Below the pieces are notes generated by a model. The model saw only the letters and a program-made list of their open reading frames with translations. It did no database searches and had not been told where the DNA came from. A program made the position numbers and the translations under genes. Source: Alphaproteobacteria bacterium (GTDB lineage: Bacteria > Pseudomonadota > Alphaproteobacteria > Rhizobiales > JAJFHC01). From it: DNA of 64,000 nucleotides. Positions 11,440 through 42,430 of the stretch are shown here, one piece after another. The DNA is taken from assembly GCA_021775805.1 (NCBI GenBank), contig JAJFHD010000017.1, positions 3,142 to 67,141 on the forward strand, written 5' to 3'. Numbering within the stretch: position 1 is the stretch's first letter; each line of letters starts with the position of its first letter.

Positions 11440-11567
11440 GTTTTACTCTTTTTTTGGGAGTCAAGAATTTGTCGTCAGTCAGTTGCGCTTGCTGCAAGAT
11501 ATTTCCAAATAGATCGGAGAGATCTGACACCCGCGCCAGATGTTCCGGACTCTCATGGTAGAACCTG

Positions 11568-12491: not shown

Positions 12492-12716
12492 AGTCAACCG
12501 ATTGTCGGGATTGTAGAGAATTTGATCGGTGAGTAAATTTCTGCCTAACGTTGACTAAAATGCGAAGTCCGAAAGGGGTCAAAAATTCCCTTTATCGCCA
12601 GCCTCCTGGACCGTCTGACAGGCGGTCGACAGCAGACGTCGCCGCCCAAAGGTCAATTATCAGGGGTACAGCAGACCACCTTGAGCGACCACCGGTTGGT
12701 CTGTCGGGTGTCATCT

Positions 12717-13460: not shown

Positions 13461-13785
13461 TGGGCTCTCCAAGATTGCACATTTACCCAAATTCATAGAA
13501 TGAACATCGTCAAAGCGAAACTATTGAGAATCATCAATTTCCGGGTTGGGTCTTCTCTGCACTAACAGACAGGCCCACCGTCAAGTCCGTTGACGATACA
13601 TGAAAGGACGGAATGAGAAAGCCGACCTTTCTGCTGGACGGCCAGTCGTCGGGGTACAGAAGGCTGCGTCGGTGCCATGCCGGACAGACCGCCGCCAAAA
13701 ACAGTCATTCAATTGACTTCCGGGCTGTCAGATAACATCTTGTGCAGGCAGGTATGGCCTGCCGTAAATTGAGGAGTAATGTCCG

Positions 13786-14556
13786 ATGAAACATACAAGA
13801 CGCGAATTTCTGGCAACCGGTACCGCTGCCCTGGGCGCAATTACGTTGCTCCCTTACGCAGCGCACGCCGATGCGCATTCCGGCGACGTCTTCAAGACCG
13901 GTGCCGGAGACATCACCGTCAACCCGGTCAGCCACGCATCGTTCGTGATGAAAACACCGGCCGGCACGATTTACGCCGATCCGGTCGGAGACGCTGCAGC
14001 CTACTCGAGCTTTCCCAAACCAGATCTGATACTGGTCACGCACCACCATGGCGACCATTTCAAGCCGGATACACTGGCGGCACTGGTTGGCGAAAACACC
14101 CGGATCATCACCAATCCGGAAGTTATGGGTAAGCTGCCCGCCGATCTGGCAGCCAAGGCGGCACAGGTTGAAAATGGCGGGTCGGCAGAATTTAAATCGC
14201 TGAAAATAGATGCCCTCCCCGCCTATAACATGACAGCGAACCGCAAGAAGTATCATCCACAAGGCCGCGACAACGGCTATGTGCTCGGTTTCGACGGCTT
14301 CCGCGTCTACATTTCCGGCGACACCGAAGACATTCCGGAAATGCGCGCCCTGAAGGACATCAGCCTCGCGTTTGTCTGCATGAACCTGCCGTTCACGATG
14401 GATGCCAAGGCGGCGGCCTCCGCAGTCGCGGAATTCAAGCCGAAATTCGTCTATCCATACCACTATCGCGGTAAGGACGGCGGCACCCAGAATCCGGAAG
14501 AGTTTGCAAAACTTCTTGGCAAGGTTTCGGAAGTGAAGTTGGGCGACTGGTACTAG
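13786..14556 (+). CDS. MBL-fold metallo-hydrolase with Tat-type signal peptide
   Basis: RREFLATGTAALGA twin-arginine leader, THHHGDH metal motif, GAGGAG RBS. Confidence 0.85.
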   Translation: MKHTRREFLATGTAALGAITLLPYAAHADAHSGDVFKTGAGDITVNPVSHASFVMKTPAGTIYADPVGDAAAYSSFPKPDLILVTHHHGDHFKPDTLAALVGENTRIITNPEVMGKLPADLAAKAAQVENGGSAEFKSLKIDALPAYNMTANRKKYHPQGRDNGYVLGFDGFRVYISGDTEDIPEMRALKDISLAFVCMNLPFTMDAKAAASAVAEFKPKFVYPYHYRGKDGGTQNPEEFAKLLGKVSEVKLGDWY

Positions 14557-14813
14557 GCGGGATAGCGCACTACCAGGCGATCCAGTTTCAATTCAGCAAT
14601 GAACCAATGAAAAATGGGCCGGCTCATTCGGGCCGGTTCATTTCAACATCCCAGTCCGGGAGTACTCCGCGAACTGGTTGATCGCAATGCTTCTCCGACA
14701 ACGACCGTTGTTGCCACAGATTGTAGTGACACCAATTACCCGGTCATGCACGATGACAGCTTCAGGAAAGCTTTCACGCCGTCTCTCCGTGGTGGACGGC
14801 TGAGGAGAACTTT

Positions 14814-15640
14814 ATGACTTTGGCATTGGTGAGCACCGATTGGGTCGCAGCACATGTCGACGACCCGACCGTAAAACTGATCGAGGTCGACTGGGACGGT
14901 CTTGACGCTTACAGAACCTCCCATATTCCCGGAGCGATTGGCTGGAACTGGAAGGACGCGCTCTGGGACCCTTTCGAACGACAGTTTCCGTCAGATGAAG
15001 AATTCTGCCGACGACTGGGCGAGTCGGGAATCGGCAACAACACGACTGTGGTTTTCTATGGTGTCCCCGTTCAATTCGGCACTTACGCATGGTGGGTGTT
15101 CAAGTACTTCGGCCACGACGATGTTCGATTGCTGGATGGCGGGCGGGTAAAATGGGAGAGTGACGGACGGCCGCTCACTCGCGACGTCCCGGTGCATTCT
15201 TCAGCCCAATACCGCAATCCCGACCGAAACCAAACCATTCGGGCGGGTCGGGATGACGTCATGGGGGAAATTGCAAATTTGCGTGCACCATTCTCGATCA
15301 TCGCTCGCACGAGGAGTATTCCGGGGCACGCGTCGGTCTCCCCGGCAAGCCGGACGCGGGCGCTGAGCGCTACGGACGCATACCGGGTGCGTTGCACATC
15401 CCATTCGATGCGCTTCTCAACGACGATGCGACATTCAAACCCACAGACGAACTCAGACAAATCGTAAGTGCATGCGTGCCGGACCCGACCCAGCCCATCA
15501 TCTCCTATTGCCGCCTTGCGCATCGGGCGACGTTGGTGAGTTTTGCAATGACGGAGTTGCTCGGTTACCAGAATGTTCGCGTCTACGACGGGTCGTGGAC
15601 CGAGTGGGGAAGCATCGTGGGTGTGCCAATCGAGAGATAA
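14814..15640 (+). pseudogene. thiosulfate/3-mercaptopyruvate sulfurtransferase (tandem rhodanese), frameshifted
   Basis: Rhodanese domain 1 is in the frame of ORF 14814..15467. Domain 2 (ILDHRSHEEYSG...GRIPGALHIPF...YCRLAHRA active-site loop) continues in the frame of ORF 15392..15640. The frame switch lies at about 15262-15290. Confidence 0.7.
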
Positions 15641-17919: not shown

Positions 17920-19496
17920 ACCTTCATCCGGAAATCGATGCCAGGTCCAAGGGCAAACGAACTGACACCGAGATCGTCAAAGTCGCCATCATGGCGGTCG
18001 GCGGCCAGGGCGGCGGTGTCCTGACCAACTGGGTCGTGGCCCTGGCAGAGGCCAACGGCTACCGGGCCCAGTCGACATCCGTGGCCGGTGTCGCACAGCG
18101 GACCGGGGCGACGATCTATTATGTGGAAATGGCACCCGACACCGGCCGGCAGCCGGTCTTCTCCCTGGCGCCGGCAGCGGGAGACGTCGATGTTCTGGTC
18201 GCCGCTGAACTGATGGAAAGCGGCCGGGCAATCATGCGCGGGTTTGTGACGCCTGACCGCACCACCCTGATCACTTCGACCCACCGGGCACTGGCGGTCC
18301 AGGAGAAAATGGAACCGGGCAACGGCGTGACCGCCGACGACGATGTGGTGACTGCTGCCGAAATGGCTGCCAAACGCTATATCGCCTTTGACATGGAACA
18401 GATTGCGGATGCTTCCGGCAGCGTCATTTCCGCAAGCCTGTTCGGCGCGCTCGCCGGTTCAGGCGCCCTGCCGTTCGAGCGCGAAAAGTTTGAAGAAACC
18501 ATCCAGTTGTCGGGACGTGGCGTCGAGGCCAGCCTCGATGCGTTCTCCAGGGCCTGCGATGTGGCCTCCGGCAATGCCCGGGGCGAAGAGGATGCCAAAC
18601 CCACAAAACTTGCGGCTGTCCCGGTGCAGGCCACGGGTCCAAAGGCGGCCGTTGAGGACTGGGATCGTCTACGCCTGCGCATCCAGGGTCTGCCTGAAAC
18701 TGTCTCGGCCATCGCAGAGGCCGGCCTCAGGAAAGTCGTGGACTTCCAGGACATCGACTACGGTCGAGAATACTTGCTGCGCCTCGAAGAGATTATCGAG
18801 GCGGACCTTGCCCATGGCGGCGAGGCCAAGGCATTTGCCCTGTCGCAATCGGCGGCAAAACATCTGGCCAACGCCATGGCCTATGACGATGTCATTCGGG
18901 TGGCGGATCTCAAGACGCGCGCGGCCCGGTTTGCCAGAGTCAAAGGCGAACTCGGCGTTACCGACGACCATGTGCTGGCAATAACCGAGTTCTTTCATCC
19001 CAGAGGCGAGGAGATCTGCGCCATGCTGCCGGCAAGGATCGGGCAGCGTATCGAAAACAACCCTCACCTGTTCCGCGTTCTTGACCGGATCGTCAACCGT
19101 GGCCGGCGCATCCGGACCGATACAGTAACCGGTTTCGGGCTGCTCTACGCCATAGCCGGACTAAGGCGCCGGCGGCGTTCGTTGCGGCGCCATGAAGTCG
19201 AGACCGCGCACATTGATACATGGCTTGAGGGCGTCCGCTCGCGGATACCGGTCAACTACGATCTTGCCGTCGAACTGGTCAACTGCCGACGACTGATCAA
19301 GGGATACAGCGACACGCACGCGCGTGGCCTTTCCAAGTTCGACCGCGTCAATGACGGCGCAAGCATTGTGGAACACCGCGACGATGCCGCGGACTGGGTG
19401 CGGCGCCTGCGTGACGCCGCCCTCAAGGACGAAGCAGGCGTGGCGCTCGACGGCGCCCTGGAAACCGTCCGGTCTTTCTCCAAACCTGTGCATTGA
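17916..19496 (+). CDS. iorB: indolepyruvate oxidoreductase, beta subunit
   Basis: ATGA start/stop overlap with iorA. IorB-like N-terminus VKVAIMAVGGQGGGVL. The upstream track extension to 17736 overlaps iorA and is rejected. Confidence 0.85.
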   Translation: MNLHPEIDARSKGKRTDTEIVKVAIMAVGGQGGGVLTNWVVALAEANGYRAQSTSVAGVAQRTGATIYYVEMAPDTGRQPVFSLAPAAGDVDVLVAAELMESGRAIMRGFVTPDRTTLITSTHRALAVQEKMEPGNGVTADDDVVTAAEMAAKRYIAFDMEQIADASGSVISASLFGALAGSGALPFEREKFEETIQLSGRGVEASLDAFSRACDVASGNARGEEDAKPTKLAAVPVQATGPKAAVEDWDRLRLRIQGLPETVSAIAEAGLRKVVDFQDIDYGREYLLRLEEIIEADLAHGGEAKAFALSQSAAKHLANAMAYDDVIRVADLKTRAARFARVKGELGVTDDHVLAITEFFHPRGEEICAMLPARIGQRIENNPHLFRVLDRIVNRGRRIRTDTVTGFGLLYAIAGLRRRRRSLRRHEVETAHIDTWLEGVRSRIPVNYDLAVELVNCRRLIKGYSDTHARGLSKFDRVNDGASIVEHRDDAADWVRRLRDAALKDEAGVALDGALETVRSFSKPVH

Positions 19497-20045
19497 ATGG
19501 AGCGTCCCGTGAACAGACCTCAGGAGCGCCCAGGCCGGAGCATCGAAGACCAGTCGGGACAGGATCCGCCACCCGACGCAGGAACCAAAAGATCTGCCGA
19601 GCCGGTCCTGCTCGAGACAATCATTCCCTATCTGATCAACCGCCTTGCTTACAAGATGAACCGGGATCTCAACGCCGACCTGCAGCGCCACGGCCTTCAC
19701 ATTTCCCATTGGCGGGTGCTCTCGGTTCTCGATTCCAGACCGGCCAGTTCAATAAACGATCTCGCGGACTATGCCATGATCGAGCAGTCGACTCTTAGCC
19801 GGCTGCTGGACAAGATGGAAAGGGACGGTCTGCTCGAGCGCGAACGCGCCCACAGCGATGGCCGGGTTCGCAATGTGTCGCTCACACAGAAAGGCCGGCG
19901 GACCTACGACACAGTGCGGGGCTTGGCGCTTGTCCACACCCAACGGGTCGTCGAATGTCTCTCGGACGATCAACAGGCAGCATTCCATGCCATGGTCGAG
20001 GCGATGGACGCGAGCCTGGAAGGTTCTGATGCGCGCGGATCCTAG
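19497..20045 (+). CDS. MarR family transcriptional regulator
   Basis: Winged-helix core (WRVLSVL..INDLADYAMIEQSTLSRLLDKMERDGLLER). The start abuts the iorB stop (TGAATG). Confidence 0.85.
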   Translation: MERPVNRPQERPGRSIEDQSGQDPPPDAGTKRSAEPVLLETIIPYLINRLAYKMNRDLNADLQRHGLHISHWRVLSVLDSRPASSINDLADYAMIEQSTLSRLLDKMERDGLLERERAHSDGRVRNVSLTQKGRRTYDTVRGLALVHTQRVVECLSDDQQAAFHAMVEAMDASLEGSDARGS

Positions 20046-20174
20046 CTGGCCCTGATTCCTGGCCAGCAGATGCTACCCTCCGATGCTTGTCACTGTCACG
20101 CCCTGTTCATTGGCGGTGCCGGCAACGCGCCGGCTGTTTGTTCGGATGGCGTCGACCCACAACCCGGTCATCAA

Positions 20175-20336
20175 TCACACGCCGCTTTCCTCTACGGCGG
20201 TCAGGCGAGCGGACTGATCGATTACCATGGCGCATTTGCCCAATCGCCCGGCGCGCTGGTAGGCGTTGCTGGCCCCCCGTGACACCAGCACCAATCACAG
20301 CTATGTCGGCTTTGCGGGGATGCTCTTTTTGCTCAT
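20175..20336 (-). pseudogene. remnant of the N-terminus of an FAD-dependent oxidoreductase
   Basis: The minus strand reads MSKKSIPAKPT*..DIAVIGAGVTG, a Rossmann GxGxxG dinucleotide motif. It then needs a frameshift in a G6 run to continue as ASNAYQRAGRLGKCAMVIDQ, followed by early stops. Confidence 0.3.
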
Positions 20337-20598
20337 GACCGCTTCCCCATCGATTGGCTGACTGCATTGGCGCCGGGTTCGTTGTGGTCATGTGTTCTGT
20401 GAGCAATTGAGGCCGTCGGTAAACCCTTAACCTTCAAACGTTGAGAGGAAATTCGGATGCCGCAGCACAGGCCGCGGCATCCGGTGTTGTCAGGCAGACT
20501 CAGTAACGGCGCCGTCTCTGGCTCTGGCGCTTGTAGCTGCGTTTCGCGTTGCGCCGCAAACTCGTGACCGCCCCTCGAGGGAGGCAGCGTCACCTCAC

Positions 20599-20955
20599 CT
20601 ACCGTTGGCCGCCATGGAAGCCGCGGCCGCCGAAGTGCCGGTAGCCATAGCGGTAACCGCCGTGGTGACGCCGCTTGTAGCCACCGAAGAAGCCGTTGCG
20701 GTAACCGCGCCTGCCGTGATGGCGGCCGTAACCGCGGTGGTAGAAGCCATGGCCGCGCTTGAAGCCGCCATGGGAGTAACGGCGCCCGCCGAAGCCGCGC
20801 CGCTTGTACCGGCCGGACACGTTGATGACGTTCGCGTGGTGTTCGCCAGAACCTGCGAAGACCGCGGAGCCGGGTGCTGCCGAGACCGGACTGGCCGCCA
20901 CCGAGAAAAGGCCGATGGCACCGACCAGTGCAGACAAGATCGCCTTGTTGTTCAT
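20599..20955 (-). CDS. secreted Gly/Arg/His/Tyr-rich low-complexity peptide (118 aa precursor)
   Basis: AAGGAGAA RBS, ATG at 20955 and signal peptide MNNKAILSALVGAIGLFSVAASPVSA. These are followed by RGFGGRRYSHGGFKRGHGFYHRGYGRHHGRRGYRNGFFGGYKRRHHGGYRYGYRHFGGRGFHGG. Confidence 0.7.
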   Translation of the reverse strand: MNNKAILSALVGAIGLFSVAASPVSAAPGSAVFAGSGEHHANVINVSGRYKRRGFGGRRYSHGGFKRGHGFYHRGYGRHHGRRGYRNGFFGGYKRRHHGGYRYGYRHFGGRGFHGGQR

Positions 20956-21265
20956 GTCATTCTCCTTCGCGTGTTGGCGGGTGCAGGATGCAACGGTCCG
21001 ATGGAATTCGGGCCGGGCCCGCACCTTAAGTTCATGGACAAGACGGAACCCGATGGGGAACGCGGCCTCGCCTGTCTGACACTCAGATGGGAGGCTGTCC
21101 CGGATAAGACGATCAACCGGACGCCACTTCTTCGTGACCCGGTTCGTGAACTGTGCGTGACCGTTGAGCGCGCAGCCGTTCGCGGCCCTTGTGCGAAAGC
21201 TGCAGTCTTGCCAATGTGTCTGCCCCAAACACCGCACCACCGCCCCCGGAGAAAGCACAACGCCC

Positions 21266-22288
21266 ATGTACGATTTCTACAGCGACACAAAATCGAAACC
21301 GACCCGCGCCATGCTGGAAGCCATGATCGCCGCAGAGGTCGGTGACGAGCAAAAAGGCGAGGACCCCACCACCAATGCCCTGTGCGAACGGGTGGCGGAT
21401 GAACTGGGACAGGAGGCGGCCGTCTTCCTGCCGTCGGGCACCATGTGCAACGAGATCGCAATCAGGGTTCACTGCCGGCCGGGCGACGAGGTGATCAGCG
21501 ACCAGACCAGCCACATCATCAATTTCGAAGGCGGCGGTCCGGCCGCCCTCAGCGGTGTCGTGCTGAAGGGCCTGCCCGGCGAACGCGGCATCTTCTCGCC
21601 GGACGACGTGAAAGCGGCAGTCCGCCCGCCCAACCGATATGCCCCGCGCAGCCGGCTGGTCAGTGTCGAACAGACCGCCAATCTGGGCGGCGGCAAGGTC
21701 TGGCCGCAACATGACATGGCGACGGTGGTCACGGCCGCCCACGATGCCGGCCTGCTGACGCACATGGACGGCGCCCGGCTGTTCAACGCCTGTGTCAAGG
21801 CAGGTGTTTCGGCCCGGGCCTACACCAGCCAGTTCGACTCGTGTTGGGTCGATTTCACAAAGGGCCTGGGCGCACCGGTGGGCGCAGTGCTGGCAGGCTC
21901 ACGGGGCTTCATCGGCGAGGCCTGGCGGTTCAAGCAGCAATGGGGTGGCGCCATGCGCCAGTCGGGAGTGATCGCGGCTGCCTGTCTTTATGCGCTCGAT
22001 CATCATGTAGACCGGCTGGCCGACGATCACGGGCTGGCGGCCACCATCGGCACGCATCTGCAAGGCCTGCCCAAGGTTGAGAGCGTCCTGCCGGTGGAAA
22101 CCAACATCGTGATTTTCGACATCGCGGCCGGCGGACCGACCGGCCAGGGGTTGGTGGACACGCTTGAGAAAGACGGCATCGTCATCGGCGCCTTTGCGGA
22201 AAGACGCGTGCGGATCGTCACCCATATCGGGGTCGGTGAAGATGCTGGCCGGGATCTGTGTGCCGGGTTGTCGCGCCATCTTGGTTGA
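21266..22288 (+). CDS. ltaE: low-specificity L-threonine aldolase (PLP-dependent, beta-eliminating lyase fold)
   Basis: N-terminus MYDFYSDTKSKPTRAMLEAM..GDEQKGEDPT and DGARLFNA motifs typical of LtaE. ATG at 21266. Confidence 0.85.
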   Translation: MYDFYSDTKSKPTRAMLEAMIAAEVGDEQKGEDPTTNALCERVADELGQEAAVFLPSGTMCNEIAIRVHCRPGDEVISDQTSHIINFEGGGPAALSGVVLKGLPGERGIFSPDDVKAAVRPPNRYAPRSRLVSVEQTANLGGGKVWPQHDMATVVTAAHDAGLLTHMDGARLFNACVKAGVSARAYTSQFDSCWVDFTKGLGAPVGAVLAGSRGFIGEAWRFKQQWGGAMRQSGVIAAACLYALDHHVDRLADDHGLAATIGTHLQGLPKVESVLPVETNIVIFDIAAGGPTGQGLVDTLEKDGIVIGAFAERRVRIVTHIGVGEDAGRDLCAGLSRHLG

Positions 22289-22314
22289 GGCCGCAGGCGG
22301 GGAACAGTATTATC

Positions 22315-22376
22315 GTTTCCCGTGCGCGATGCAGCACACCAGTGCTGCGTTGCAGACACGGGATCGCGCCGCACGC
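22315..22376. repeat. REP-like imperfect palindromic element, copy 1
   Basis: GTTTCCCGTGCGCGATGCAGCACaccaGTGCTGCGTTGCAGACACGGGA lies between convergent genes. Near-identical copies are at 23202..23263 and 63765..63813. Confidence 0.8.
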
Positions 22377-22391
22377 AAGCACCTGCTTTTT

Positions 22392-23039
22392 TCATCCTCC
22401 GGCCGGCTGCCTGATGTCCTCAAGGTCGCAGACCCAGCCGAACAGATGGCCTTCCCCGGCAATCAGAGAGAGTGCGGCGTCGTGCAGGCCGGGTTCGGTG
22501 GCGGCACAGCAGTCGGCGACGGTGACACACCAGTAGCCGCGGTCGACGGCCTCGCGCAGGGTCGAGTGAACGCAGCACTGGGTGGTCACGCCGCAGACGA
22601 TCAGGTGATCGATGCCGGCGGTGTGCAGTATTTCATCCAAATCGGTTTGATGGAAGGCGCCGAAGCTTGCCTTGTCGATCACGGTTTCGTCTGGAAGCGG
22701 CGTCACGTCGCCCAGAAAATCATGCCCCGGTTCGCCCTTGATGCAGAAACGGCCCAGCGGACCGGGCCGTCCGACGTAGTCGAGGGTGCGTCTGTAGGGC
22801 GACACATCGTGCAAGTCGGCGTGGTAGGATTCGCGGGTGTGGATGACCCGGCAGCCAAGCGCACGCGCCGCCGCGATCAGACCGGCCACACGCGGGATGA
22901 TCGCCTGCATGTCGTTTATGCCGTCGCCGGCGTCATCGATAAAGAACTGCTGCTGCATGTCGATGGCGAGCAATGCGGTGGTGGCGGGGAAAAACCGGTA
23001 GGTGCGGTTGCTGCGGCAGGGAACGGAAATCTCGTGCAT
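22392..23039 (-). CDS. isochorismatase-family cysteine hydrolase
   Basis: LLAIDMQQQF (Asp), IDKASFGAF (Lys) and LIVCGVTTQCCV (Cys) triad context. ATG at 23039; the longer track ORF runs through the repeat region. Confidence 0.85.
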   Translation of the reverse strand: MHEISVPCRSNRTYRFFPATTALLAIDMQQQFFIDDAGDGINDMQAIIPRVAGLIAAARALGCRVIHTRESYHADLHDVSPYRRTLDYVGRPGPLGRFCIKGEPGHDFLGDVTPLPDETVIDKASFGAFHQTDLDEILHTAGIDHLIVCGVTTQCCVHSTLREAVDRGYWCVTVADCCAATEPGLHDAALSLIAGEGHLFGWVCDLEDIRQPAGG

Positions 23040-23161
23040 GGGGTGTCTGCTTGTTTGAGTTGGGGGACCGATGGTGCTTCGCCGGTCAGCGTACAGGCCA
23101 CCTGCCCGATTGACGAGACCTTGAGCGGTAATGACGGGCATGCCGCGTGGATAGGCGAATA

Positions 23162-23321
23162 GATCCCGGATCGCGCTTTGCTTGTCCGGGAAACGGTGGT
23201 CGTTTCCCGTGCGCAATGCAGCACGCCAGTGCTGCTTCGCAGACACGGGAGCGCGGCACACGCTGACGCCTGTAAACGGGGCGATCCCGGATTGACCTTG
23301 CGGCCGTCCGGGAAACGGGTG
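23162..23321. repeat. composite of three consecutive hairpin units (flanking unit / REP copy 2 / flanking unit)
   Basis: Units 23162..23198 and 23283..23321 share GATCCCGGAT..GTCCGGGAAACGG(G)TG, with internal TCCCGGA/TCCGGGA pairing. They bracket REP copy 2 at 23202..23263. Confidence 0.75.
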
Positions 23322-23763
23322 CCGATGGCGGGTCCCGGTCATTTTCCATCACCCAACCCAAGAAATTTCTCAACCGCCAGATCACCACATCGCCCGGACT
23401 ACAACTTCGGTTTATCCCCGGCACCCTCCGTCGCCATTACAGCGCGGATTTCTGCGCATCCGTTACCGCAGGGTTAACAGCGCTTGAATCGATCCGCCGA
23501 AAAACCGCGGAAATCTGCCTTAAATTGTACCGGAATTTCGGAAACTTTCTTCAGCCGGGGCCGCAATAATCGAGGCAATGAGAACGAGGAAACCGGTCGA
23601 TGCGTTGTTTCTGTCTTCAAGAACCGTTGGTGTGCGCCCCTAAACCTTAGTTGTATTTTGTCGGATCCGGTGGCATTTCCTGCCGCCCGCACATTGCCGA
23701 CGCCCTTATCGAAAGACAGATGCTCGCCCGGCCGGAAACCTTGACGTAACCGCTGGAGCCTGG

Positions 23764-26430
23764 ATGACCGCGCCGGTCAAAGACATAACCTATCGCGCCT
23801 TTCTGTCCTATAGCCACAGGGACACGAGCGAGGCTGCTTGGTTGCACAAGAAGCTGGAGGAATGGCGTATCGACCGGGACCTGGTGGGCCGGGAGACAAC
23901 CATCGGCCCGGTGCCCGAGACCCTGCGCCCAATCTTCCGCGACCGCGAGGACTTTGCCGGCGGCCACTCGCTCGAGCAGGCGACCCATGCAGCGCTGGAG
24001 GCGTCGGAATTCCTGATCGTGCTGTGTTCGCCCAGTGCGGTGGCCAGCGACTATGTCAACGAAGAGGTCCGCAAGTTCAAAGCCATGGGTCGGGCCGACC
24101 GGGTGATCCCGGTGATCATAGCGGGCGAGCCCTATAGCGACACCTTCGAGTGCTTTCCGCCGGCGGTGAAATACACCGTCGACGACTGGGGCCAGATCAC
24201 CGACACGCCCGCCGAACCGCTGGCGCCCGACTTCCGCGACAGGGGCGACGGCCGCAGGCGGGCGGCCGCCAAGGTGGTCGCCGGCCTGTTGGGGGTGCGC
24301 TACGACGAGATCCGGCAGCGGGCCCGGCAGGCCAGAAGCCGGGCCCGGCTGCAGACGACGATCGCCGCCGCCTCGTTCCTGATGGTTACCTTCATGGGCG
24401 GGTTCTACTACTGGAAGACGATCCACCTGGCGACCCAGCAGGAGTTGAGCCAGAAACAGTTGGCCAAACTGGAAGGCCTGGTCAAGGACCTGTTGTCGTC
24501 GAGTGCGGAGACGGCGGGGAGCCCTGAGCCCGAGACGGCGGAGGATCTGGAAAAGGCACTCAAGTTCGCCCAGCGCCGGGCCAATGCCGGTGACCGGCGC
24601 ATGGCCCGGGCCCTGATCCAGCTGAGCTGGGGGCGCGTGGTCGAAGCGCAGAAACTGTTCCAGGAGGTGGCCGACGACAAGGCCGCCCGGATCGAAAAGG
24701 CCCGGACCTACATCAAGCGCCAGGAGACCGAGACGGCGGCCGCCTTCCGCAACCTGGGCGCGATCGCCCGGCTGGCCGATCCCCGCCGGGCCCGCATGGC
24801 CTATGCCCGGGCGCTCGAGTTCGATCCCGATCACCCCGATACGCTCTACTGGCACGGCACGCTGCACCTGCGGGCGGGCGACCTGGGCACGGCGGAGAAA
24901 TCCCTCACCCGCCTGATGGACGTCGCGACGCTCAAGCGCAACCGTCTGGGCATCTACCGCGCCCACCTGCGCCTGGGCGAAATCGTCAAGGACCGGGGCA
25001 ATCTCGAGGCCGCCCTCGTCCACCAGCGCCAGGCGATCGCGATAGCCCGCGGGCGCCTGACCGAGCAACCGAAAAACCTCGACCGCCAGCACGAACTGTC
25101 GGTGTCGTATGAAAAGGTAGGCGACGTCCAGATGGCGCAGGGCAACCTGGCCGGAGCGCTGCGTAACTACAACAAGGCCCTGGCGATTGCCGAACGGCTG
25201 ATCGCCACGGACCCGGACAACGCCGGCTGGCAACGCGGCCTGTCGATCAGCCATGAACGGGTCGGCAACATCCAGATTACGCAAGGCGACCTGGAAAGCG
25301 CGCTTAAATCCCACCGCGGCGCCCTGGCGATCCGCGAACGGCTGGCAAAGGCCGACCCCAAGAATGCCGGCTGGCAGCGTGGCCTGTCGGTCTCCTTCGA
25401 GCGGGTCGGCAATGTGGAAATGCGCCAGGGCAATCTTGAAGGTGCGTTGACACTTTATCACGAGGGCCTGGCGATCACCGAACGCCTGGCAGCGTCGGAC
25501 CCCAACAACGCCGGCTGGCAGCGCGATCTGTCGGTCTCCCACGGCCGTGTGGGCAGTGCGCTGGCGGCCCAGGGCGACCTGAAGAGCGCGCTCAAATCCT
25601 ACCGTGACAGCCTCGCGATCGCCGAACGGCTGGCGTCGTCCGACATCGAGAACGCCGGCTGGCAGCGCGACCTGTCGGTGTCATACGAAAAGGTCGGCGA
25701 CGTGCAGCTGACCCAGAACGATCTTGGCGGCGCGCTCAGCACCTACCGGCGCAGCCTGGCGATCCGCCAGCATCTGGCGGGCTCGGACCCCAAGAATGCC
25801 GGTTGGCAGCGCGACCTTGCGGTGTCCTACAACAAGCTCGGCGACGTCCAGGTGGCGCACGGGGCGCACGACGCGGCGCAGAGCGCGTTTGGCCATGCCC
25901 ACGCGATCATGGAACGGCTGACCGCGTCCGACCCGATGAACGCGGGCTGGCAGCATCACCTGTCGATGTCGCTGGAAAAAATCGGCACCGTGCGCCTCGC
26001 CCAGGGCGCCTTCGACCAGGCGCTCGCCGCCTACAGCGGCGGCCTGTCGATCACCCGGAAGCTGGCGTCATCGGACCCGCGCAACGCGTCGTGGCAGCGC
26101 GACCTGTCGGTGGCCTTTTCCAATGTGGGCCGGGTGCAGGTGGAACTGGGCGAACACGAGGCCGCCCTCACCGCCTACCGCCACGGCCTCCTGATCATGG
26201 AAAAGCTCGCCACCGCCGACCCCGGCAATCCCGGCCTGCAGGTGGACCTGGTGGTCGGCCAGGGCAAGCTCGGCCTGCTGTTCGTGAAAATGAACCGCCG
26301 TGAGGAGGCACTGGCGACCTTCCGGGAAGGCCGGGCGATGATCGCGCCGCTGGCGAGGAATGCGGAGCATGGGCGGTGGCAGGATTTCCTGGGGCTGTTT
26401 GACCGGGAGATTGCGTCGTTGGGGGGGTGA
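23764..26430 (+). CDS. TIR domain - single TM helix - TPR-like repeat protein (888 aa)
   Basis: TIR_2-like N-terminus (RAFLSYSHRD, FLIVLCSPSAVASDYVNEEV). Arg-rich RQRARQARSRAR followed by hydrophobic TTIAAASFLMVTFMGGFYYW. Then nine 48-aa repeats (NAGWQRDLSVSYEKVGDVQ..QGDL..AL..Y..LAI.ERLA..DP). Confidence 0.85.
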   Translation: MTAPVKDITYRAFLSYSHRDTSEAAWLHKKLEEWRIDRDLVGRETTIGPVPETLRPIFRDREDFAGGHSLEQATHAALEASEFLIVLCSPSAVASDYVNEEVRKFKAMGRADRVIPVIIAGEPYSDTFECFPPAVKYTVDDWGQITDTPAEPLAPDFRDRGDGRRRAAAKVVAGLLGVRYDEIRQRARQARSRARLQTTIAAASFLMVTFMGGFYYWKTIHLATQQELSQKQLAKLEGLVKDLLSSSAETAGSPEPETAEDLEKALKFAQRRANAGDRRMARALIQLSWGRVVEAQKLFQEVADDKAARIEKARTYIKRQETETAAAFRNLGAIARLADPRRARMAYARALEFDPDHPDTLYWHGTLHLRAGDLGTAEKSLTRLMDVATLKRNRLGIYRAHLRLGEIVKDRGNLEAALVHQRQAIAIARGRLTEQPKNLDRQHELSVSYEKVGDVQMAQGNLAGALRNYNKALAIAERLIATDPDNAGWQRGLSISHERVGNIQITQGDLESALKSHRGALAIRERLAKADPKNAGWQRGLSVSFERVGNVEMRQGNLEGALTLYHEGLAITERLAASDPNNAGWQRDLSVSHGRVGSALAAQGDLKSALKSYRDSLAIAERLASSDIENAGWQRDLSVSYEKVGDVQLTQNDLGGALSTYRRSLAIRQHLAGSDPKNAGWQRDLAVSYNKLGDVQVAHGAHDAAQSAFGHAHAIMERLTASDPMNAGWQHHLSMSLEKIGTVRLAQGAFDQALAAYSGGLSITRKLASSDPRNASWQRDLSVAFSNVGRVQVELGEHEAALTAYRHGLLIMEKLATADPGNPGLQVDLVVGQGKLGLLFVKMNRREEALATFREGRAMIAPLARNAEHGRWQDFLGLFDREIASLGG
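25075..26370 (+). repeat. intragenic tandem repeat, 9 units of 144 nt (48 aa) inside the TIR-TPR gene
   Basis: Repeat-initial Asn at residues 438, 486, 534, 582, 630, 678, 726, 774 and 822, an exact 48-residue period. Confidence 0.85.
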
Positions 26431-26693
26431 AGGGGAGAGTCTGGGTTTGGGGGGTGGGCTCAACAGGTGAATGCGGACGTTGCAACTTCTAACCAACAGG
26501 TCCCTTAAGTGCCATAAATCGCCGTTCATGGTGTCGTAGAAAAGGTCGGTATTGCTGCGGAGTAAACCTGAGTTTGATGGCTTGCTGATGGCGGTGCTGT
26601 CAGACGAATGCAAATCAGTCTCGGCAAGTTCAGTGACGCTGCCCACCTTATACTAGCTTCTCCGGAAAAAGCCTTTTGTTCGTCCGAATCGGA

Positions 26694-28586
26694 TCAAGTA
26701 GCAAGTGCCCGGTCTTCGTCGGACATCTCATCGGGCAGATCATCGAAGCTGGCGTAGTTGAGCTGGTAGAGCTGGGCGTAGAGACCGCCGTGCTCGACTA
26801 GCGCCTCGTGATCGCCTTCTTCGATCAGGCGACCCTGTTGAAGCACGATGATTCGGTCGGCATTACGGATAGTGGCGAGGCGGTGTGCGATGACCAGCCC
26901 GGTGCGTCCCTCCAGCAGCCGTTGCAGCGCTTTCTGGATTTGCATTTCTGTGTAGCTATCGATGTTGGCGGTGGCCTCGTCCAGCACCAGAATTTTCGCA
27001 TCCGCCACCAGCGCGCGGGCAAAGCTTAGAAGCTGGCGTTGCCCAAGGCTCAGGTTGCTGCCACGCTCTTCCAGCATCGTGTCATAACCCTGTGGCAGAG
27101 ACTCGATGAATTCATGAGCCCCAACGACTATGGCGGCTTCGACCACTGCCTTGTCATCGGCCCAGTCGGACGCATAGCGGATGTTGTCCCGCACTGTGCC
27201 GGTGAACAGGTACGGCTCTTGCAAAACCATCGCGATATGACGCCCAAGGCTCTTCTGCGTGACGTCGCGCACGTCGCGCCCGCCAACCAGAACCGCGCCG
27301 GCCTGCACCTCGTAGAACCGGTGTATCAGCGCCATCGAGCTTGATTTGCCGGAGCCTGTCGGACCGACCAGTGCCACCGTCTCACCAGAGTTCACGCGGA
27401 AACTGACGTCCTTGAGCACGGGCTGCTCCGGATTGTAACCGAAAGTCACATTGCGGAACTCGACCGAACCGTCGTCGTCGTCCCCAAGCGACGTCGCATT
27501 GGGGGCGTCTTCGACATCGACATCAACGTCCAAGACCTCTGTCAGCCGATGGCCAGACGCCATGGCGCGTTGCATCACCGAATATTGTATTGTCAGCGAA
27601 CGGATCGGGTCAAAGAACCGCTGTATGTAGAACAGGAAGGCCACCATAACGCCGACTTCGATCCGGCCCGACACCACCATCAGGCCACCGGCCACGGCCA
27701 CCACGGCCATTGCACTGCCGGTTAGCGTGTCAACAATCGGGATCATGATCTGTGCCAGTTTCGAGGCGCGCAGATGGGCCTTGTAAGTGTTGTCGACAAG
27801 CTGGCCATAAAGTTCGGCATTCAGGTTTGCACGGTCCATAGCCTGAACGGCACGGACACCGTGAATCGCCTCGGCCAAGGCGCCGTTGGTGATTGAGTTC
27901 GCCTCATGGGCGGCCATGAAAGCGGCCCGAGCCCGGGTCAGCCACAAGATGCGAACACCGAACAGTATCGGAATGACCATCAGGATCATCATTGCCAGTT
28001 GCCAGTCGAGCCAAAGCATGACAGCTACGATCCCGAACAGGAGCAGCAGGTCGCCTACAGCCAGCACCGAAGTTTCCAGAAATTCCTGCATCGAGTTCAC
28101 ATCGCCTTGCAGGCGCGACATCAGCCGGCCGACCTCGGTTTTGTCCATGAATGAGAGCGACACGCTCTGCAAGTGGCCAAACATTGCGCGCCGAATATCA
28201 AACAGGACATTTTCCGCCATACGGCCGGTCACGACCTCTTGCACATGCGAGGCGATGAAATTTATGACGATAACGATGCCGAACATCGTCAGGATTCCAA
28301 GTAGCACGCTGGGCGACGCATCCAGCGCCATTCCATTGTCGATCGCATAGCGGATCAAGAGCGGGATTGTCAGCTGCGCACCTGTATAGGTCACCACGGC
28401 TGCAACCGAAATCGCCACGTGACGTTTGTAGGGGCGAACGAACTGCCAGATCCGCTGAGCAACCTTGCCATCGAACACCCTTCCGAAGATCTCTTCCTCG
28501 ATGCGGTCCGATCCGACAACGGCGCGCATGCGCGGGCGTTCATCCTCGTGCGGGTCGCGCGGTTCACCGGATCCTGTCGGGCTCAT
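26694..28586 (-). CDS. ABC exporter, fused permease/ATPase half-transporter (MdlB-like)
   Basis: Six-TM N-terminal domain, Walker A GPTGSGKSS, signature LSLGQRQ, Walker B ILVLDEAT. Confidence 0.9.
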   Translation of the reverse strand: MSPTGSGEPRDPHEDERPRMRAVVGSDRIEEEIFGRVFDGKVAQRIWQFVRPYKRHVAISVAAVVTYTGAQLTIPLLIRYAIDNGMALDASPSVLLGILTMFGIVIVINFIASHVQEVVTGRMAENVLFDIRRAMFGHLQSVSLSFMDKTEVGRLMSRLQGDVNSMQEFLETSVLAVGDLLLLFGIVAVMLWLDWQLAMMILMVIPILFGVRILWLTRARAAFMAAHEANSITNGALAEAIHGVRAVQAMDRANLNAELYGQLVDNTYKAHLRASKLAQIMIPIVDTLTGSAMAVVAVAGGLMVVSGRIEVGVMVAFLFYIQRFFDPIRSLTIQYSVMQRAMASGHRLTEVLDVDVDVEDAPNATSLGDDDDGSVEFRNVTFGYNPEQPVLKDVSFRVNSGETVALVGPTGSGKSSSMALIHRFYEVQAGAVLVGGRDVRDVTQKSLGRHIAMVLQEPYLFTGTVRDNIRYASDWADDKAVVEAAIVVGAHEFIESLPQGYDTMLEERGSNLSLGQRQLLSFARALVADAKILVLDEATANIDSYTEMQIQKALQRLLEGRTGLVIAHRLATIRNADRIIVLQQGRLIEEGDHEALVEHGGLYAQLYQLNYASFDDLPDEMSDEDRALAT

Positions 28587-30430
28587 GGCCCAGGTTCCTT
28601 CTTCGTCAGCATTTCGGCAGAGGGACGCATCTGCAAATTGTGCAAGTCGCTGTAGCGCCCTCTCAGCTTCAGTAGTTCTTCGTGGCTGCCCTGTTCAACG
28701 ATCCGCCCGTGTTCCAAAAACAGGATCCTATCGGCGTGCATCAGGCTGGCCAGCCGATGTGCCACGATCAGCGTCACGCGATTTTTGGCATATTCCTTCA
28801 GTGCCGAGCGGATACGTCTTTCCGTCCCGGCATCGATGGCCGCAGTGGAATCGTCGAAAATCAGCACCGCGGGCTCCATCATAAGCGTACGCGCGATCGA
28901 CAGTCGCTGGCGCTGACCGCCGGACAGCGACACACCGCGCTCGCCGACGATCGTGCCGTACTTACCGGGCAAGCCAAGAACATAGTCATGCAGTTGTGCG
29001 GACTCCGCGACACCGCGGATTTGGTACGCCTCGGTGAAAGGATCGGCATAGGCGATGTTGTTTTCGATCGAGGTGGTGAACAAAAAACTGTCCTGCTGGA
29101 CAACAGCCACGGCCTGACGAACCGACGATAGAGTCGCGTCGCGAATGTCCTGCCCGTCGATGCTGATCGATCCGTGCGTCGGGTCGTAAAAGCGGGGGAT
29201 CAGGTGCATCAACGTCGATTTTCCGGAACCGGGCGGACCGACAACGCCGATTGTCTCACCCTTGCGCGCCTCAAAGCTGATGCCAGACAGTACATTGCGG
29301 GCGATGTTTCCGGCATATGCAAAACTTACATTCTCTAGCTTTAGCGTGCCGTCGGTGATCTCCAGATCCCGCGCGCCCGGAGGGTCGTCGACTTCGACTT
29401 CGTGATCGATCAGAGCAAACAGGCGCGACCCACAAGTTGAGGCGCGGGCGTACCCGTTCACCATCATGCCGAGCTGGCGCACTGGCATCTGCAGGATCGT
29501 CATAAAGGTCAGGAAAGTGGCAAGAGTGCCTAGCGTGATCTCGCCTGACGCCACCTTCCGCCCGCCAAAAAACAGAACCAGTCCCATGGCGGCAAAGAAT
29601 GCCAGCGTCATCGCAGAAGTGTTTTTAACCCGTATCTCGATCCTTTCATGGCTGAGTTCCAACGCTGATTTGGACGCGACCTCAAACTTTTCCATTTCGT
29701 GCCCGGATGAGGCAAACGCCCGCACCACACGAATACCGGCCAGGTTTTCTTCCATCACCTGACTAAGAACGCCCAGCCGTTCCTGCAGGACCAGCCAGGT
29801 CCGGCGCAGCGCCAGCCGCATGACTGTGCTGCGCCATCCCGCGAAAGGTACGAATGACAATGCCAGAAGGCCAAGAACCAAGTTGGTCGACAATAACAGG
29901 GTTGCCCCAATCCCAATCAACAACCCCAGCAGCACAGAGCGTACCAGCGCGGTCGAAAAATACATCCGCACGCCTTCCAAATCCAGCATGCCGACCGTGA
30001 TCAGATCACCCGAATGGGTCCGGTCGTGGAATGAAAAAGGCAAGCTCTGGATTTTTTCATAAACGGTATTGCGGATATCGCGCGCCAGCGAATGCCCGAC
30101 AGATTCCGCAGTGTAGTTCTGGATTAGTGTGAATATACCGCGTCCGACGCTTACCAAAAACAACAGCAGTGCAATCCAGTAGAGCGTTTCGGGTTCGGCC
30201 TTTGCCGCAGCCACCGCCTGGGTCTGGTCCACCGCGCGCCCCAGAATTACAGGGATCGACAACTGCATCAGGGCGGCCGCCACGGTTGCCGCCAATGCCA
30301 GCCCGGCCTGGACGGGGTATCGGAATGCCATCCGCGTTATACGTGCCACGGCGTCGAGGCCCTGCTGTCGGTCAACAGAGCTTGTACGACGAAACATCCG
30401 ATTGGAATCAGTCTCGGTACTGGATTGCAT
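28583..30430 (-). CDS. ABC exporter, fused permease/ATPase half-transporter (MdlA-like)
   Basis: Walker A GPPGSGKST, signature LSGGQRQR, Walker B VLIFDDST. A 4-nt ATGA overlap with the downstream partner implies a heterodimer. Confidence 0.9.
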   Translation of the reverse strand: MQSSTETDSNRMFRRTSSVDRQQGLDAVARITRMAFRYPVQAGLALAATVAAALMQLSIPVILGRAVDQTQAVAAAKAEPETLYWIALLLFLVSVGRGIFTLIQNYTAESVGHSLARDIRNTVYEKIQSLPFSFHDRTHSGDLITVGMLDLEGVRMYFSTALVRSVLLGLLIGIGATLLLSTNLVLGLLALSFVPFAGWRSTVMRLALRRTWLVLQERLGVLSQVMEENLAGIRVVRAFASSGHEMEKFEVASKSALELSHERIEIRVKNTSAMTLAFFAAMGLVLFFGGRKVASGEITLGTLATFLTFMTILQMPVRQLGMMVNGYARASTCGSRLFALIDHEVEVDDPPGARDLEITDGTLKLENVSFAYAGNIARNVLSGISFEARKGETIGVVGPPGSGKSTLMHLIPRFYDPTHGSISIDGQDIRDATLSSVRQAVAVVQQDSFLFTTSIENNIAYADPFTEAYQIRGVAESAQLHDYVLGLPGKYGTIVGERGVSLSGGQRQRLSIARTLMMEPAVLIFDDSTAAIDAGTERRIRSALKEYAKNRVTLIVAHRLASLMHADRILFLEHGRIVEQGSHEELLKLRGRYSDLHNLQMRPSAEMLTKKEPGP

Positions 30431-30710
30431 ATTCTTATTCAGTTTTATTGCCGACGCGACTGGACCGTCGCGGTATCTTTAAGCGCCCGACTAATAGTCT
30501 AGTTTCTAAAAGAATGGCAATGTGTGATCGAGCAGTAAGTTCGACGCCGCCCGCGGATATCTAGCCGTCTGCAAAAAGGTTTGAAGGGCCACGAAGGTGC
30601 TGACAGACCAACGCGAACCGGTCTCACGAAAAGACGGCGAGCGAGAAAGCCGGGGGAAGACTGAAAACTCAACAAAAATACCGTTCCAAAATGAGCGCCC
30701 CGGATTTGCT

Positions 30711-30860
30711 TCAACGTTCAAGGTAACACCAAGGCAAAAATTCCTCAATCCTGTTGATCTTGTGATCTGCAATACGGCTCAGCACTTTAGTGAGCCAAAC
30801 CTAGGGATCAACGCCATTAAGCTCAAATGTCTGCTTTTGGGATAAAACAGCCGTAGACTT
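30711..30860 (-). mobile_element. IS66-family transposase C-terminal remnant
   Basis: The minus strand reads [42 protein letters not shown], matching the conserved IS66 Tnp C-terminus (..NGxDPxxWLxxVLxRIxxHxxxRIxELLPWN). It has an in-frame TAG and no upstream body. Confidence 0.7.
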
Positions 30861-30991
30861 CCTGTAACTAATCGGCGTCATGGTTGCGAAGGCGCACAGG
30901 ATTCTCGTCGTCAAAATTCCAATCCACACGTTAAAAACTCCGATATATTACGCCACAGTTAGAACACACAACCTCACACAGGCAGCAAACC

Positions 30992-32044
30992 ATGACCTGG
31001 ACCAACGACAAACTGCACGCCTTGCGCGCCAAATTCGCCGATGACGCTGGCGGCGAGATGCATGATCCGCATTTTCGCGAGGTGGCCTCGTTCATCTTTG
31101 GCGAAGGTGGCCACAGGTCGGCACCCTATGCCGGGCGGTCGACGTTTCTCGATGCACCCGCACGGGAGCTCGACCAGTTGGCCGCCGACACGCCGCAGGT
31201 GGCGATCGTCGTCGTGCCGATGGACCTGGCGGTGACCAACCGCAACGGTTCGCGGTTCGGGCCGCGGGCGATGCGGGCAGTGGAGCGGATCGGGCCTTAC
31301 AACGAAGGGCTTCGGGTGGCGCCGGTGCACGAGATGGACGTGGTCGATGCCGGCGACGTGCCGTTCTCGAGCCGCTTCGACCTTGCGCAGTCGCACACGG
31401 AGATCGAGGCATGCATCTCGACCATAGTCGGGCTGGGCGCGCTGCCGCTTTCGGTCGGCGGCGATCATTCGATCAGCCATCCGATCCTGCGGGCGGTGGG
31501 GGCCGAGCGGCCGGTGGGCCTGGTGCACATTGATGCCCATTGCGACACCGGCGGGCCGTTCGACGGCGAACGCTTCCATCACGGCGGACCCTTCCGCAAT
31601 GCGGTGCTGGACGGGGTGCTCGACCCGGAGCGGACCATCCAGTTGGGGATTCGCGGGTCGACGGAGTTCATCTGGGAGTTTTCCACCCTGTCGGGCATGA
31701 CGGTGGTCCATGCCCACGAGTTCAGCCGGCGCGGTCTCGACGACATCATTGCCCAGACGCTCGACGTGGTGGGCGACGGGTCGACTTATATCTCGTTCGA
31801 TGTGGACAGCCTGGATCCGGCCTTCGCACCGGGCACCGGCACGCCGGAGGCCGCAGGCCTGACCCCGCGTGAAGTCGTCCACCTGCTGCGCGGGCTCAAA
31901 GGCATCGACATTGTCGGCGGCGACGTGGTCGAAGTGGCGCCGGCCTACGACCCGACCACCAACACGGCGATGAACGGGGCACAGGTGCTGTTCGAGATCT
32001 TGAGCCTGATGCGCTTCAGCCCGTCCCTGCCGCGCAAGGGGTAG
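30992..32044 (+). CDS. ureohydrolase (agmatinase / guanidino-acid hydrolase family)
   Basis: Mn-ligand motifs GGDHSIS, HIDAHCD, SFDVDSLDP and GGDVVEVAP. Confidence 0.9.
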   Translation: MTWTNDKLHALRAKFADDAGGEMHDPHFREVASFIFGEGGHRSAPYAGRSTFLDAPARELDQLAADTPQVAIVVVPMDLAVTNRNGSRFGPRAMRAVERIGPYNEGLRVAPVHEMDVVDAGDVPFSSRFDLAQSHTEIEACISTIVGLGALPLSVGGDHSISHPILRAVGAERPVGLVHIDAHCDTGGPFDGERFHHGGPFRNAVLDGVLDPERTIQLGIRGSTEFIWEFSTLSGMTVVHAHEFSRRGLDDIIAQTLDVVGDGSTYISFDVDSLDPAFAPGTGTPEAAGLTPREVVHLLRGLKGIDIVGGDVVEVAPAYDPTTNTAMNGAQVLFEILSLMRFSPSLPRKG

Positions 32045-42354: not shown

Positions 42355-42430
42355 AACCGTCTCCTACTTTGGTTTGACGCAAGTCGTCTTGCGTCTGTTC
42401 AAAGCCTAGAAACAGCTGGACACTCACTCC

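Follow-up and report, generated by a model that had tools for sequence, protein, structure and literature searches.

A bacterial TIR protein with a predicted membrane helix and a TPR-like repeat array: a candidate receptor of the inner membrane

Introduction

A bacterial TIR domain joined in a single chain to a long array of repeats raises a simple question: on which side of the membrane does such a protein sense, and what would its TIR domain do with the signal? We consider this question for one gene in a 64,000-nucleotide (nt) stretch of an alphaproteobacterial genome of the order Rhizobiales (GenBank assembly GCA_021775805.1, contig JAJFHD010000017.1, positions 3,142 to 67,141), which we call the window and whose first letter is position 1 throughout. 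The gene is an open reading frame (ORF) at 23764..26430 (+) in the ORF listing of the window. It begins with ATG, has the Shine-Dalgarno sequence GGAG 5 nt 5' of that codon, and is a complete coding sequence of 888 amino acids (aa) plus stop, for which the ORF call, Pfam and AlphaFold2 give the order TIR domain, predicted transmembrane (TM) helix, stalk and TPR-like array. All parts of the gene described below lie on the forward strand. A first-pass annotation, made from the letters of the window, had named this gene the best candidate for an uncharacterised signalling or defence module.

We read the 888-aa protein as a stand-alone, single-pass receptor of the inner membrane, in which a periplasmic solenoid sensor would switch a cytoplasmic TIR domain that cleaves nicotinamide adenine dinucleotide (NAD+), and we put the probability of this reading at about one half. 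On our best reading, what is new is that a known kind of protein, the single-chain TIR plus repeat sensor, is here split across the membrane. According to a survey of E. coli TIR proteins, bacterial TIR systems seem to lack the TM helix and repeat ectodomain that mark Toll-like receptors (TLRs) (PMC11350192, Discussion), and a review of TIR architectures places TIR with extracellular repeats only in animals and oomycetes (PMC9153377). We found no earlier description of a TIR-TM-TPR family, although subscription journals lay outside the literature searched and a prior mention is therefore possible. To our knowledge, the known bacterial TIR systems (Thoeris, TIR-II, TIR-STING, SPARTA, Avs-TIR) all sense their triggers inside the cell.

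Results

The TIR domain and its putative catalytic glutamate

The N-terminus of the protein carries a bacterial TIR domain, as the first-pass annotation had proposed, and its predicted fold is confidently that of a TIR. Pfam TIR_2 (PF13676) matches residues 13-122 with E=2.4e-12 and 47.8 bits against a gathering cutoff of 28, and ThsB_TIR (PF08937) reaches 26 bits against a cutoff of 21.2; NCBIfam adds nothing specific. An AlphaFold2 model of residues 1-250 has a predicted local distance difference test score (pLDDT) of 90.5, and Foldseek matches it with probability 1.00 to the TIRs of TLR1/2/15, SPARTA TIR-APAZ, SARM1, MAL, AbTir and MyD88, with TM-scores to solved TIRs of up to 0.75 when normalised to the target. 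The full-length AlphaFold2 model, built on a 47-sequence alignment and with a mean pLDDT of 88.5, has a compact alpha/beta domain at residues 10-176, which we take as the extent of the TIR domain (23791..24291, predicted cytoplasmic; Pfam TIR_2, AlphaFold2 and Foldseek). The TIR motif AFLSYSHRD occupies residues 12-20, and the domain ends in a family-specific C-terminal extension in which D162, G163 and K170 are invariant in the 47-sequence alignment.

The stretch LIVLCSPSAVASDYVNEEVRKF (residues 84-105) contains a pair of glutamates that had been suggested to sit where NAD-cleaving TIRs have their catalytic residue. Alignment narrows this suggestion to the second of the two, E101 (codon GAG, 24064..24066), in the motif Y-V-N-E-E-V. 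In HMMER alignments E101 stands opposite the glutamate of W-C-W-D-E-L in Cat1, of W-C-K-Y-E-L in TLR2 (TLR15 aligns likewise) and of W-V-K-K-E-I in 9m0n, a solved 824-aa TIR-TPR protein, and it fits the motif [W/Y]-[C/V]-x-x-E-[L/I/V] at the alphaC position. E101 is invariant in the 47 homologues; N99 and the first glutamate, E100, are nearly so. We take the position of E101 to be that of the catalytic glutamate of enzymatic TIRs, as established for SARM1 E642 and the plant TIR glutamate. By analogy with these enzymes, we infer that the TIR domain is a predicted NAD+-cleaving enzyme acting through E101.

The TPR-like array

Residues 340-868 form a TPR-like alpha-solenoid (24781..26367; Pfam, AlphaFold2 and Foldseek), the predicted periplasmic sensor. 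Pfam TPR_12 matches with E=1.6e-32, and TPR_10 and many further TPR families also score above their cutoffs. The regular part of the solenoid consists of nine 48-aa units, the number given in the first-pass annotation and borne out by repeat analysis (residues 437-868, nt 25072-26367), with a mean pairwise identity of 45% and, in TRF, a period of 144 nt in the repeat region. In the full-length model the solenoid has a pLDDT of 93-98 and runs to the C-terminus as paired 20-residue helices per unit, closed by a capping helix at residues 870-888 (26371..26427; AlphaFold2 helix 870-887). Foldseek finds that it resembles the superhelices of OGT, LGN and designed CTPR proteins. Ahead of it lies a helical stalk or linker, residues 219-335 (24418..24768, predicted periplasmic), where the model has helices at 180-248, 256-274, 278-288 and 292-335, the first of which begins before the stalk.

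Among relatives the repeat number ranges from 5 to 14, and the consensus over 1,062 repeats, NAxWQRDLSVSYxxVGDVLxAQGxLxxALxSYRxxLAIxERLAxxDP, is well conserved, with positions 3, 13, 20, 26, 30 and 39 the most variable. Scans with Pfam, NCBIfam and PADLOC detect no P-loop/NTPase, SIR2 or SLOG domain in the 888-aa protein, and the earlier statement that it has no partner domain stands. Every sequence string that the first-pass annotation quoted is present in the protein at the place given for it. A 631-aa antisense ORF at 23647-25542 (-), which overlaps the gene, is a shadow ORF over the GC-rich repeats and was rejected as a gene.

Membrane helix and topology

The segment between the TIR domain and the stalk was assessed by Kyte-Doolittle (KD) hydropathy over 19 residues, by a simple Hessa sum and by counts of flanking lysine and arginine (K/R); family statistics refer to the 145 best representatives from a profile search with the TIR+TM head. 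In the 888-aa protein an Arg-rich juxtamembrane stretch, placed by charge counts at residues 183-195 (24310..24348; RQRARQARSRAR covers residues 183-194) and predicted to lie on the cytoplasmic side, precedes a single predicted TM helix at residues 197-218 (24352..24417, QTTIAAASFLMVTFMGGFYYWK; KD, homologue alignment and AlphaFold2), within which TTIAAASFLMVTFMGGFYYW forms the hydrophobic segment, residues 198-217. Six K/R fall in the 15 residues before the helix versus one after it. The full-length model places the hydrophobic stretch inside the one long helix 180-248, with low pLDDT precisely at 198-228.

The pattern is stronger in the family. The aligned segment (approximately residues 195-215) is a hydrophobic 19-mer in nearly all homologues, with KD 2.0-2.8 in most, 5-10 K/R on its N-terminal side and 1-3 on its C-terminal side. 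Among the 145 representatives KD is at least 1.6 in 129, and K/R are more numerous in the N-terminal than in the C-terminal flank in 139 (medians 7 versus 2). By the positive-inside rule, this asymmetry would make the TIR cytoplasmic and leave the C-terminal part on the far side of the membrane. Some relatives carry markers on the C-terminal side of the helix: P0038 is a TIR-TM-TPR-OmpA_C protein (PF00691, 59.9 bits), P0011 has a PDZ insertion there, and P0338 and P0382 are TIR-TM-FGE-sulfatase proteins with 6-8 ectodomain cysteines. Among the 385 relatives fetched, 63 share a small ectodomain in which two cysteines are invariant in 62/62 sequences, as would be expected for a disulfide formed outside the cytoplasm. 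All four markers (OmpA_C, PDZ, FGE and the two cysteines) occur only in relatives that share the head and TM helix, and none is in the 888-aa protein itself. We conclude that this protein probably spans the inner membrane once, with the TIR inside and the repeat array outside; the topology of this particular member is one that we infer from its sequence and from those of its relatives. The single helix with TIR in and repeats out that was first suggested is supported at the family level, while the protein's own helix is borderline.

That borderline helix is the first of several points that weigh against a periplasmic array. The hydrophobic segment of the 888-aa protein has a KD of only 1.41 over 19 residues and a simple Hessa sum of ~+2.7 kcal/mol, and in the closest clade (P0002-P0004, P0006, P0012, P0056) the segment is likewise marginal, with KD ~1.4 or lower. 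The OmpA_C and PDZ fusions are one case each among the 385 sequences, and the sequence of P0038 appears riddled with frameshifts. The same 48-aa TPR arrays are also found in STAND NTPase proteins, and characterised STAND NTPase relatives sense their ligands in the cytoplasm.

These points suit a different reading, that of a TIR-TPR sensor working in the cytoplasm after the manner of TIR-II or Avs. The helix would then be no true span or serve as a peripheral tether, and the array would sense a foreign protein, from a phage or another source, within the cell and switch on the TIR NADase there. TIR-II, the only validated single-chain TIR+TPR defence protein (PMC11350192), has no reported TM helix and neither does 9m0n, and the 48-aa repeat type is shared with nSTAND1 and AAA_16 proteins. 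The segment is, however, conserved in position and clearly hydrophobic in most relatives, the nSTAND1 forms included; the charge excess on its N-terminal flank recurs in almost the whole sample; OmpA_C and FGE fusions and the invariant-cysteine ectodomain lie on the C-terminal side in relatives; and a full-length comparison gives no significant sequence match to 9m0n. We consider a cytoplasmic sensor unlikely.

Family, modularity and distribution

A full-length search returned more than 1,400 relatives. Of the best 120, nearly all combine TIR_2 with TPR in a chain of 700-1,100 aa, and the most specific name that any of these bears is 'tetratricopeptide repeat protein'. Used as the profile in an exhaustive search, the TIR+TM head retrieves 6,466 representative clusters (at 50% identity) at E<=1e-30 and 13,617 at E<=1e-10. 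Behind this head we find 48-aa TPR arrays (62/145), other alpha-solenoids, WD40 propellers, FGE-sulfatase domains, the small two-cysteine domain and domains without a Pfam match. Swapping also runs the other way: the TM + 48-aa TPR module stands behind DUF4062-nSTAND1, AAA_16 and DUF676 hydrolase heads, and behind a caspase (Peptidase_C14) head that is preceded by a signal-peptide-like segment. Exchange in both directions, of heads and of sensors, is what receptor and conflict-system families show. Judged by profile matches and domain calls, the head family is large in bacteria and its ectodomains appear interchangeable.

Within species-representative genomes the head occurs in 58 loci, mostly in metagenome-assembled genomes (MAGs) of Hyphomicrobiales (Xanthobacteraceae, Hyphomicrobiaceae, Rhodomicrobium, Methyloceanibacter and others), with scattered loci in Gammaproteobacteria, Burkholderiaceae, Gemmatimonas, Acidobacteriota and Verrucomicrobiae. 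Several of these genomes hold 2-3 paralogues, and the best identity among the species-representative genomes is 73%, which places the species of the window outside that set; a look-up of the exact 888-aa sequence in public assemblies gave no record. Plasmid matches to the family are distant; related TIR-TM-X proteins are present in cultured Sinorhizobium (Sinorhizobium sp. K101, WP_345774920.1) and Rhizobium leguminosarum (RCAM2802, QND24511.1 and QND24509.1). A family of thousands of clusters with members in cultivable rhizobia is experimentally accessible.

We note two side observations on individual members. On the conjugative plasmid p_2 of Rhizobium leguminosarum RCAM2802, positions 41197-53673 hold three genes annotated as TIR domain-containing within 12 kb; in two of the three proteins (746 and 744 aa) a TIR is combined with a TM-like helix and an extensive C-terminal region, and one of these two has TPR-like W-Q-Q-R-L repeats. 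In a Roseiarcus sp. MAG (contig L062, ~6674) a family member has an in-frame stop in the start motif of its TIR, MAALQY*AFLSYSH, and is probably a pseudogene or an assembly error.

Proposed mechanism

In the receptor reading, the basic stop-transfer stretch and the one TM helix would anchor the protein with its N-terminal TIR facing the cytoplasm, and the stalk and the ~530-residue TPR-like solenoid would lie in the periplasm. The solenoid would bind a periplasmic ligand, for which phage tail or ejection proteins, bacteriocins, injected toxins and products of envelope damage are candidates. Binding would shift the oligomeric state of the receptor and gather the cytoplasmic TIRs, and the assembled TIRs would cleave NAD+ via E101, as other TIR enzymes do. 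The outcome could be NAD+ depletion and arrest of the cell, or the release of a signal derived from ADP-ribose. Ligand-induced oligomerisation, NADase activity and any immune role are each predicted steps of this scheme.

The window gene may also belong to something wider. We tentatively suggest a large, unrecognised bacterial class of TLR-style pattern receptors, in which swappable extracytoplasmic sensors (TPR, WD40, FGE/C-lectin-like and others) would pick up invaders or damage in the periplasm, ahead of any breach of the cytoplasm, and signal over one TM helix to a TIR NADase, with the window gene as its TPR-type member.

Immune or non-immune sensing

What would such a receptor be for? An immune role is suggested by the swapping of heads with conflict effectors, by the precedent of E. 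coli TIR-II, a single TIR+TPR protein that protects from phages and requires its TIR active site to do so (PMC11350192), and by a variable, relocating genomic context. The last is visible in the closest orthologue, 85% identical and found on contig L064: only window positions 23442-26434 are shared between the two contigs, as one colinear block of 81.8% nt identity in blastn, and homology ends at both block edges, with unrelated flanks. The contexts of four close homologues all differ.

Other observations count against immunity. About 5 of the 150 nearest-neighbour ORFs of relatives match PADLOC models, and the Pfam tally of these 150 neighbours (~40 loci) is dominated by housekeeping and metabolic families. 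No defence genes were found in the window's own neighbourhood, and a tblastn search with the TIR+TM head found no relatives in 50,697 phage records. For the 888-aa protein itself PADLOC gives only a generic TPR match and a weak SAVED_TIR match. A separate point concerns catalysis: in the divergent paralogues P0048 and P0062, N-E-E is replaced by N-K-Q or D-K-Q with the remaining architecture kept; since the glutamate pair is lost there, some family members are probably not enzymes. The lack of a defence-island association and of a phage link weakens the immune reading, and we give non-immune envelope sensing a substantial share. To call the gene the best candidate for a defence module thus claimed more than its neighbours and the phage search bear out. 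The first interpretation as a whole is partly supported: the architecture and the family-level topology stand, and the suggested nicotinamidase link and IS66 remnant, described below, are not supported.

The non-immune alternative is a sensor or scaffold of the envelope that serves the cell's own physiology (envelope stress, development or dormancy), with the TIR as an NAD-linked regulator or as a protein-interaction module. The mostly housekeeping and metabolic neighbours, without defence-island enrichment, and the lack of phage association suit it, as do the several paralogues per genome and the concentration of the family in one order, Hyphomicrobiales; so do an ECF-sigma-like motif in the conserved upstream block (see below) and the one relative fused to the peptidoglycan-binding OmpA_C. 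Against this, the TM-TPR module is swapped among classic conflict-effector heads (TIR, DUF4062/NIR, caspase, nSTAND1), the glutamate at the catalytic position is invariant, the genomic context is variable, the spread over phyla is patchy, and the window shares the ECF-like motif with one orthologue only. On balance we think this alternative somewhat unlikely.

Relation to known systems

The known proteins nearest in layout are TIR-II and the solved protein 9m0n (also 9umd). Like the window protein, each carries its TIR at the N-terminus and its TPR array behind it in a single chain, with no obligatory partner gene, and 9m0n keeps the active-site glutamate motif (W-V-K-K-E-I versus Y-V-N-E-E-V here). 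They differ in that no TM helix is reported for TIR-II, whereas a conserved TM helix lies here between TIR and repeats; in that the relatedness to 9m0n is confined to the TIR (profile E=0.004), full-length phmmer returning no match to it; and in that the repeats here are a distinctive 48-aa unit. A literature search on the PDB codes 9M0N/9UMD found nothing relevant. We presume that 9m0n is TIR-II, a guess that is not established.

The likeness to animal TLRs is one of layout. Here too an ectodomain of solenoid repeats, one TM helix and, in the cytoplasm, a TIR that would act when clustered are predicted, and the modelled TIR fold matches the TIRs of TLR1/2/15. The polarity, however, is opposite, since the window protein would be type II with its TIR at the N-terminus; its repeats are TPR-like rather than leucine-rich repeats; and it keeps the catalytic glutamate in an NADase-type motif, which leads us to expect an enzymatic output rather than scaffolding. 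The resemblance, as far as the predicted architecture goes, is analogy and not orthology. If the predicted topology is true, the family would be a bacterial counterpart of the missing TLR layout, TIR signalling would extend to surveillance of the periplasm, and one could ask directly whether a TIR NADase is activated when a ligand brings about clustering across a membrane. For the targets of diversity-generating retroelements, a location of putative conflict-system sensors in the periplasm has been suggested (PMC10907252).

The nearest earlier descriptions concern architectures with other heads. The 'third component' of vWA-MoxR subsystem 4 has a variable head, a membrane segment and a TPR array or beta-propeller, and its authors took the membrane to be its site of action (Kaur et al. 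2020, PMC7159879, section 22); caspase-TM-extracellular receptor architectures are also on record (PMC3501461). The general order of parts is that of the window protein, with a putative effector of variable kind at the N-terminus, then a membrane span, then repeats at the C-terminus, but no TIR head is described in either, and the vWA-MoxR protein is an operonic component while no vWA or MoxR gene is linked to the window gene. Among the relatives found here, the DUF4062(NIR)-nSTAND1-TM-TPR proteins (P0047, P0059, P0060) have the same TM + 48-aa TPR module at 44-48% identity over the array. With Avs and other STAND proteins the window protein shares the effector-sensor logic; it differs in having no NTPase switch, the TIR being joined straight to the TM helix.

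Comparison with Thoeris suggests a further reading: the window TIR may make a messenger of the cyclic ADP-ribose type for an effector encoded elsewhere in the genome. The TIR does score above the ThsB_TIR cutoff, and many TIRs make signalling nucleotides (10.64898/2025.12.03.692087). But neither the window nor any of 51 related loci contains a linked ThsA-like, SLOG, Macro or other candidate effector gene, the known types of Thoeris are encoded in operons while this gene is not, and ThsB lacks the large sensor array and TM helix found here; the 888-aa protein matched no PADLOC Thoeris model, and the window neighbourhood has no effector gene. With neither an effector gene nor a STAND NTPase, the layout is distinct from those of Thoeris and Avs, as the first-pass annotation had said. 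A signal generator with an unlinked effector is in our view improbable, and both it and a soluble TIR-II-like protein are less likely than non-immune envelope sensing.

Genomic neighbourhood

The 5' neighbour of the gene is a divergent isochorismatase-family gene and the two 3' neighbours are convergent ABC exporter genes, so that there is no co-oriented neighbour, in agreement with the earlier description. No conserved partner gene emerges either: in an all-vs-all blastp of ORFs, no neighbour family occurs in more than 6 of 51 loci. An 'ABC transporter' cluster of neighbours that includes the window exporters was set aside as generic ABC similarity at varying positions. The nearer surroundings are metabolic, with a BiuH/RutB-like amidohydrolase, a threonine-aldolase-like lyase, MarR, an indolepyruvate oxidoreductase, the ABC exporter pair and an arginase-family enzyme.

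The isochorismatase-family neighbour had prompted speculation about a link between a nicotinamidase and the nicotinamide released by a TIR. It best matches BiuH (173.8 bits) and RutB models and has no nicotinamidase (PncA) model among its matches; the adjacency does not recur in ~50 other loci, and isochorismatase is not among the 25 commonest Pfam families of the 150 neighbours. The link thus finds no support. Nor could we confirm an IS66 remnant beyond the exporter genes: ORFs at 30506-30845 have no Pfam match, and 30400-31000 has no insertion sequence-like DNA match in the plasmid collection, no dedicated insertion sequence database having been searched. A known plasmid origin was also considered and rejected, megablast of 20000-32000 against plasmids matching the ABC genes only, at ~72%.

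One related locus has conflict-type genes nearby. On the metagenome contig L002, which carries the 54%-identical homologue P0006, a TIR_2-RcgA fusion (648 aa, 13609-15555) and a Peptidase_C14 caspase-like protein (564 aa, 19085-20779) lie within 9 kb, an arrangement not seen at other loci.

Upstream block and dispersed element

The block shared with the L064 orthologue extends ~320 nt 5' of the gene (23442..23763, +; blastn against contig L064), so that this upstream DNA travels with the gene, and it presumably holds the promoter and the 5' leader. At 23581-23606, 183 nt before the start codon, it contains the motif AGAAC-N17-CGTT, which resembles alphaproteobacterial promoters of extracytoplasmic function (ECF) sigma factors (EcfG-type GGAAC-N16/17-CGTT). 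The motif is present only in the window and in the L064 orthologue, and ~50 other family members lack it in their upstream DNA. A search of the conserved block for a sigma-70-like site found none. A regulatory RNA in the block was considered and dropped, Rfam matches being at chance level only.

Between the gene and the start of the isochorismatase-family gene, with its Met at 23039, lie 724 bp, and this spacer contains a repeated element, as first reported. This element is of the repetitive extragenic palindrome/miniature inverted-repeat transposable element (REP/MITE) kind and is dispersed between genes at window positions 22295-22385, 23165-23319 and 63764-63815, and at 509-740 of L064; it thus lies on both sides of the isochorismatase-family gene, near the window end and 5' of the L064 orthologue. 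Its 73-nt core reads TCGTTTCCCGTGCGC.ATGCAGCAC.CCAGTGCTGC...ACACGGGA, and it can form a long hairpin, with an unexceptional folding energy (z = -1.66).

Other observations in the window

Two further features lie 5' of the gene. A low-GC patch at 10000-14500 (47-52% versus ~60-65% elsewhere) holds a 309-aa ORF with EF-G domains III, IV and C only, without the GTPase domain, a sulfotransferase-family ORF and an alpha/beta hydrolase, and may be a foreign or degraded segment. At 20599-20955 (-) a small ORF, for which Pfam gives no match, encodes a signal peptide, MNNKAILSALVGAIGLFSVAASPVSAAPG, followed by a ~89-residue tail composed of nearly all Gly, Arg, His, Tyr and Phe (25 G, 17 R, 11 H); from its composition, the product looks like a secreted cationic glycine-rich peptide.

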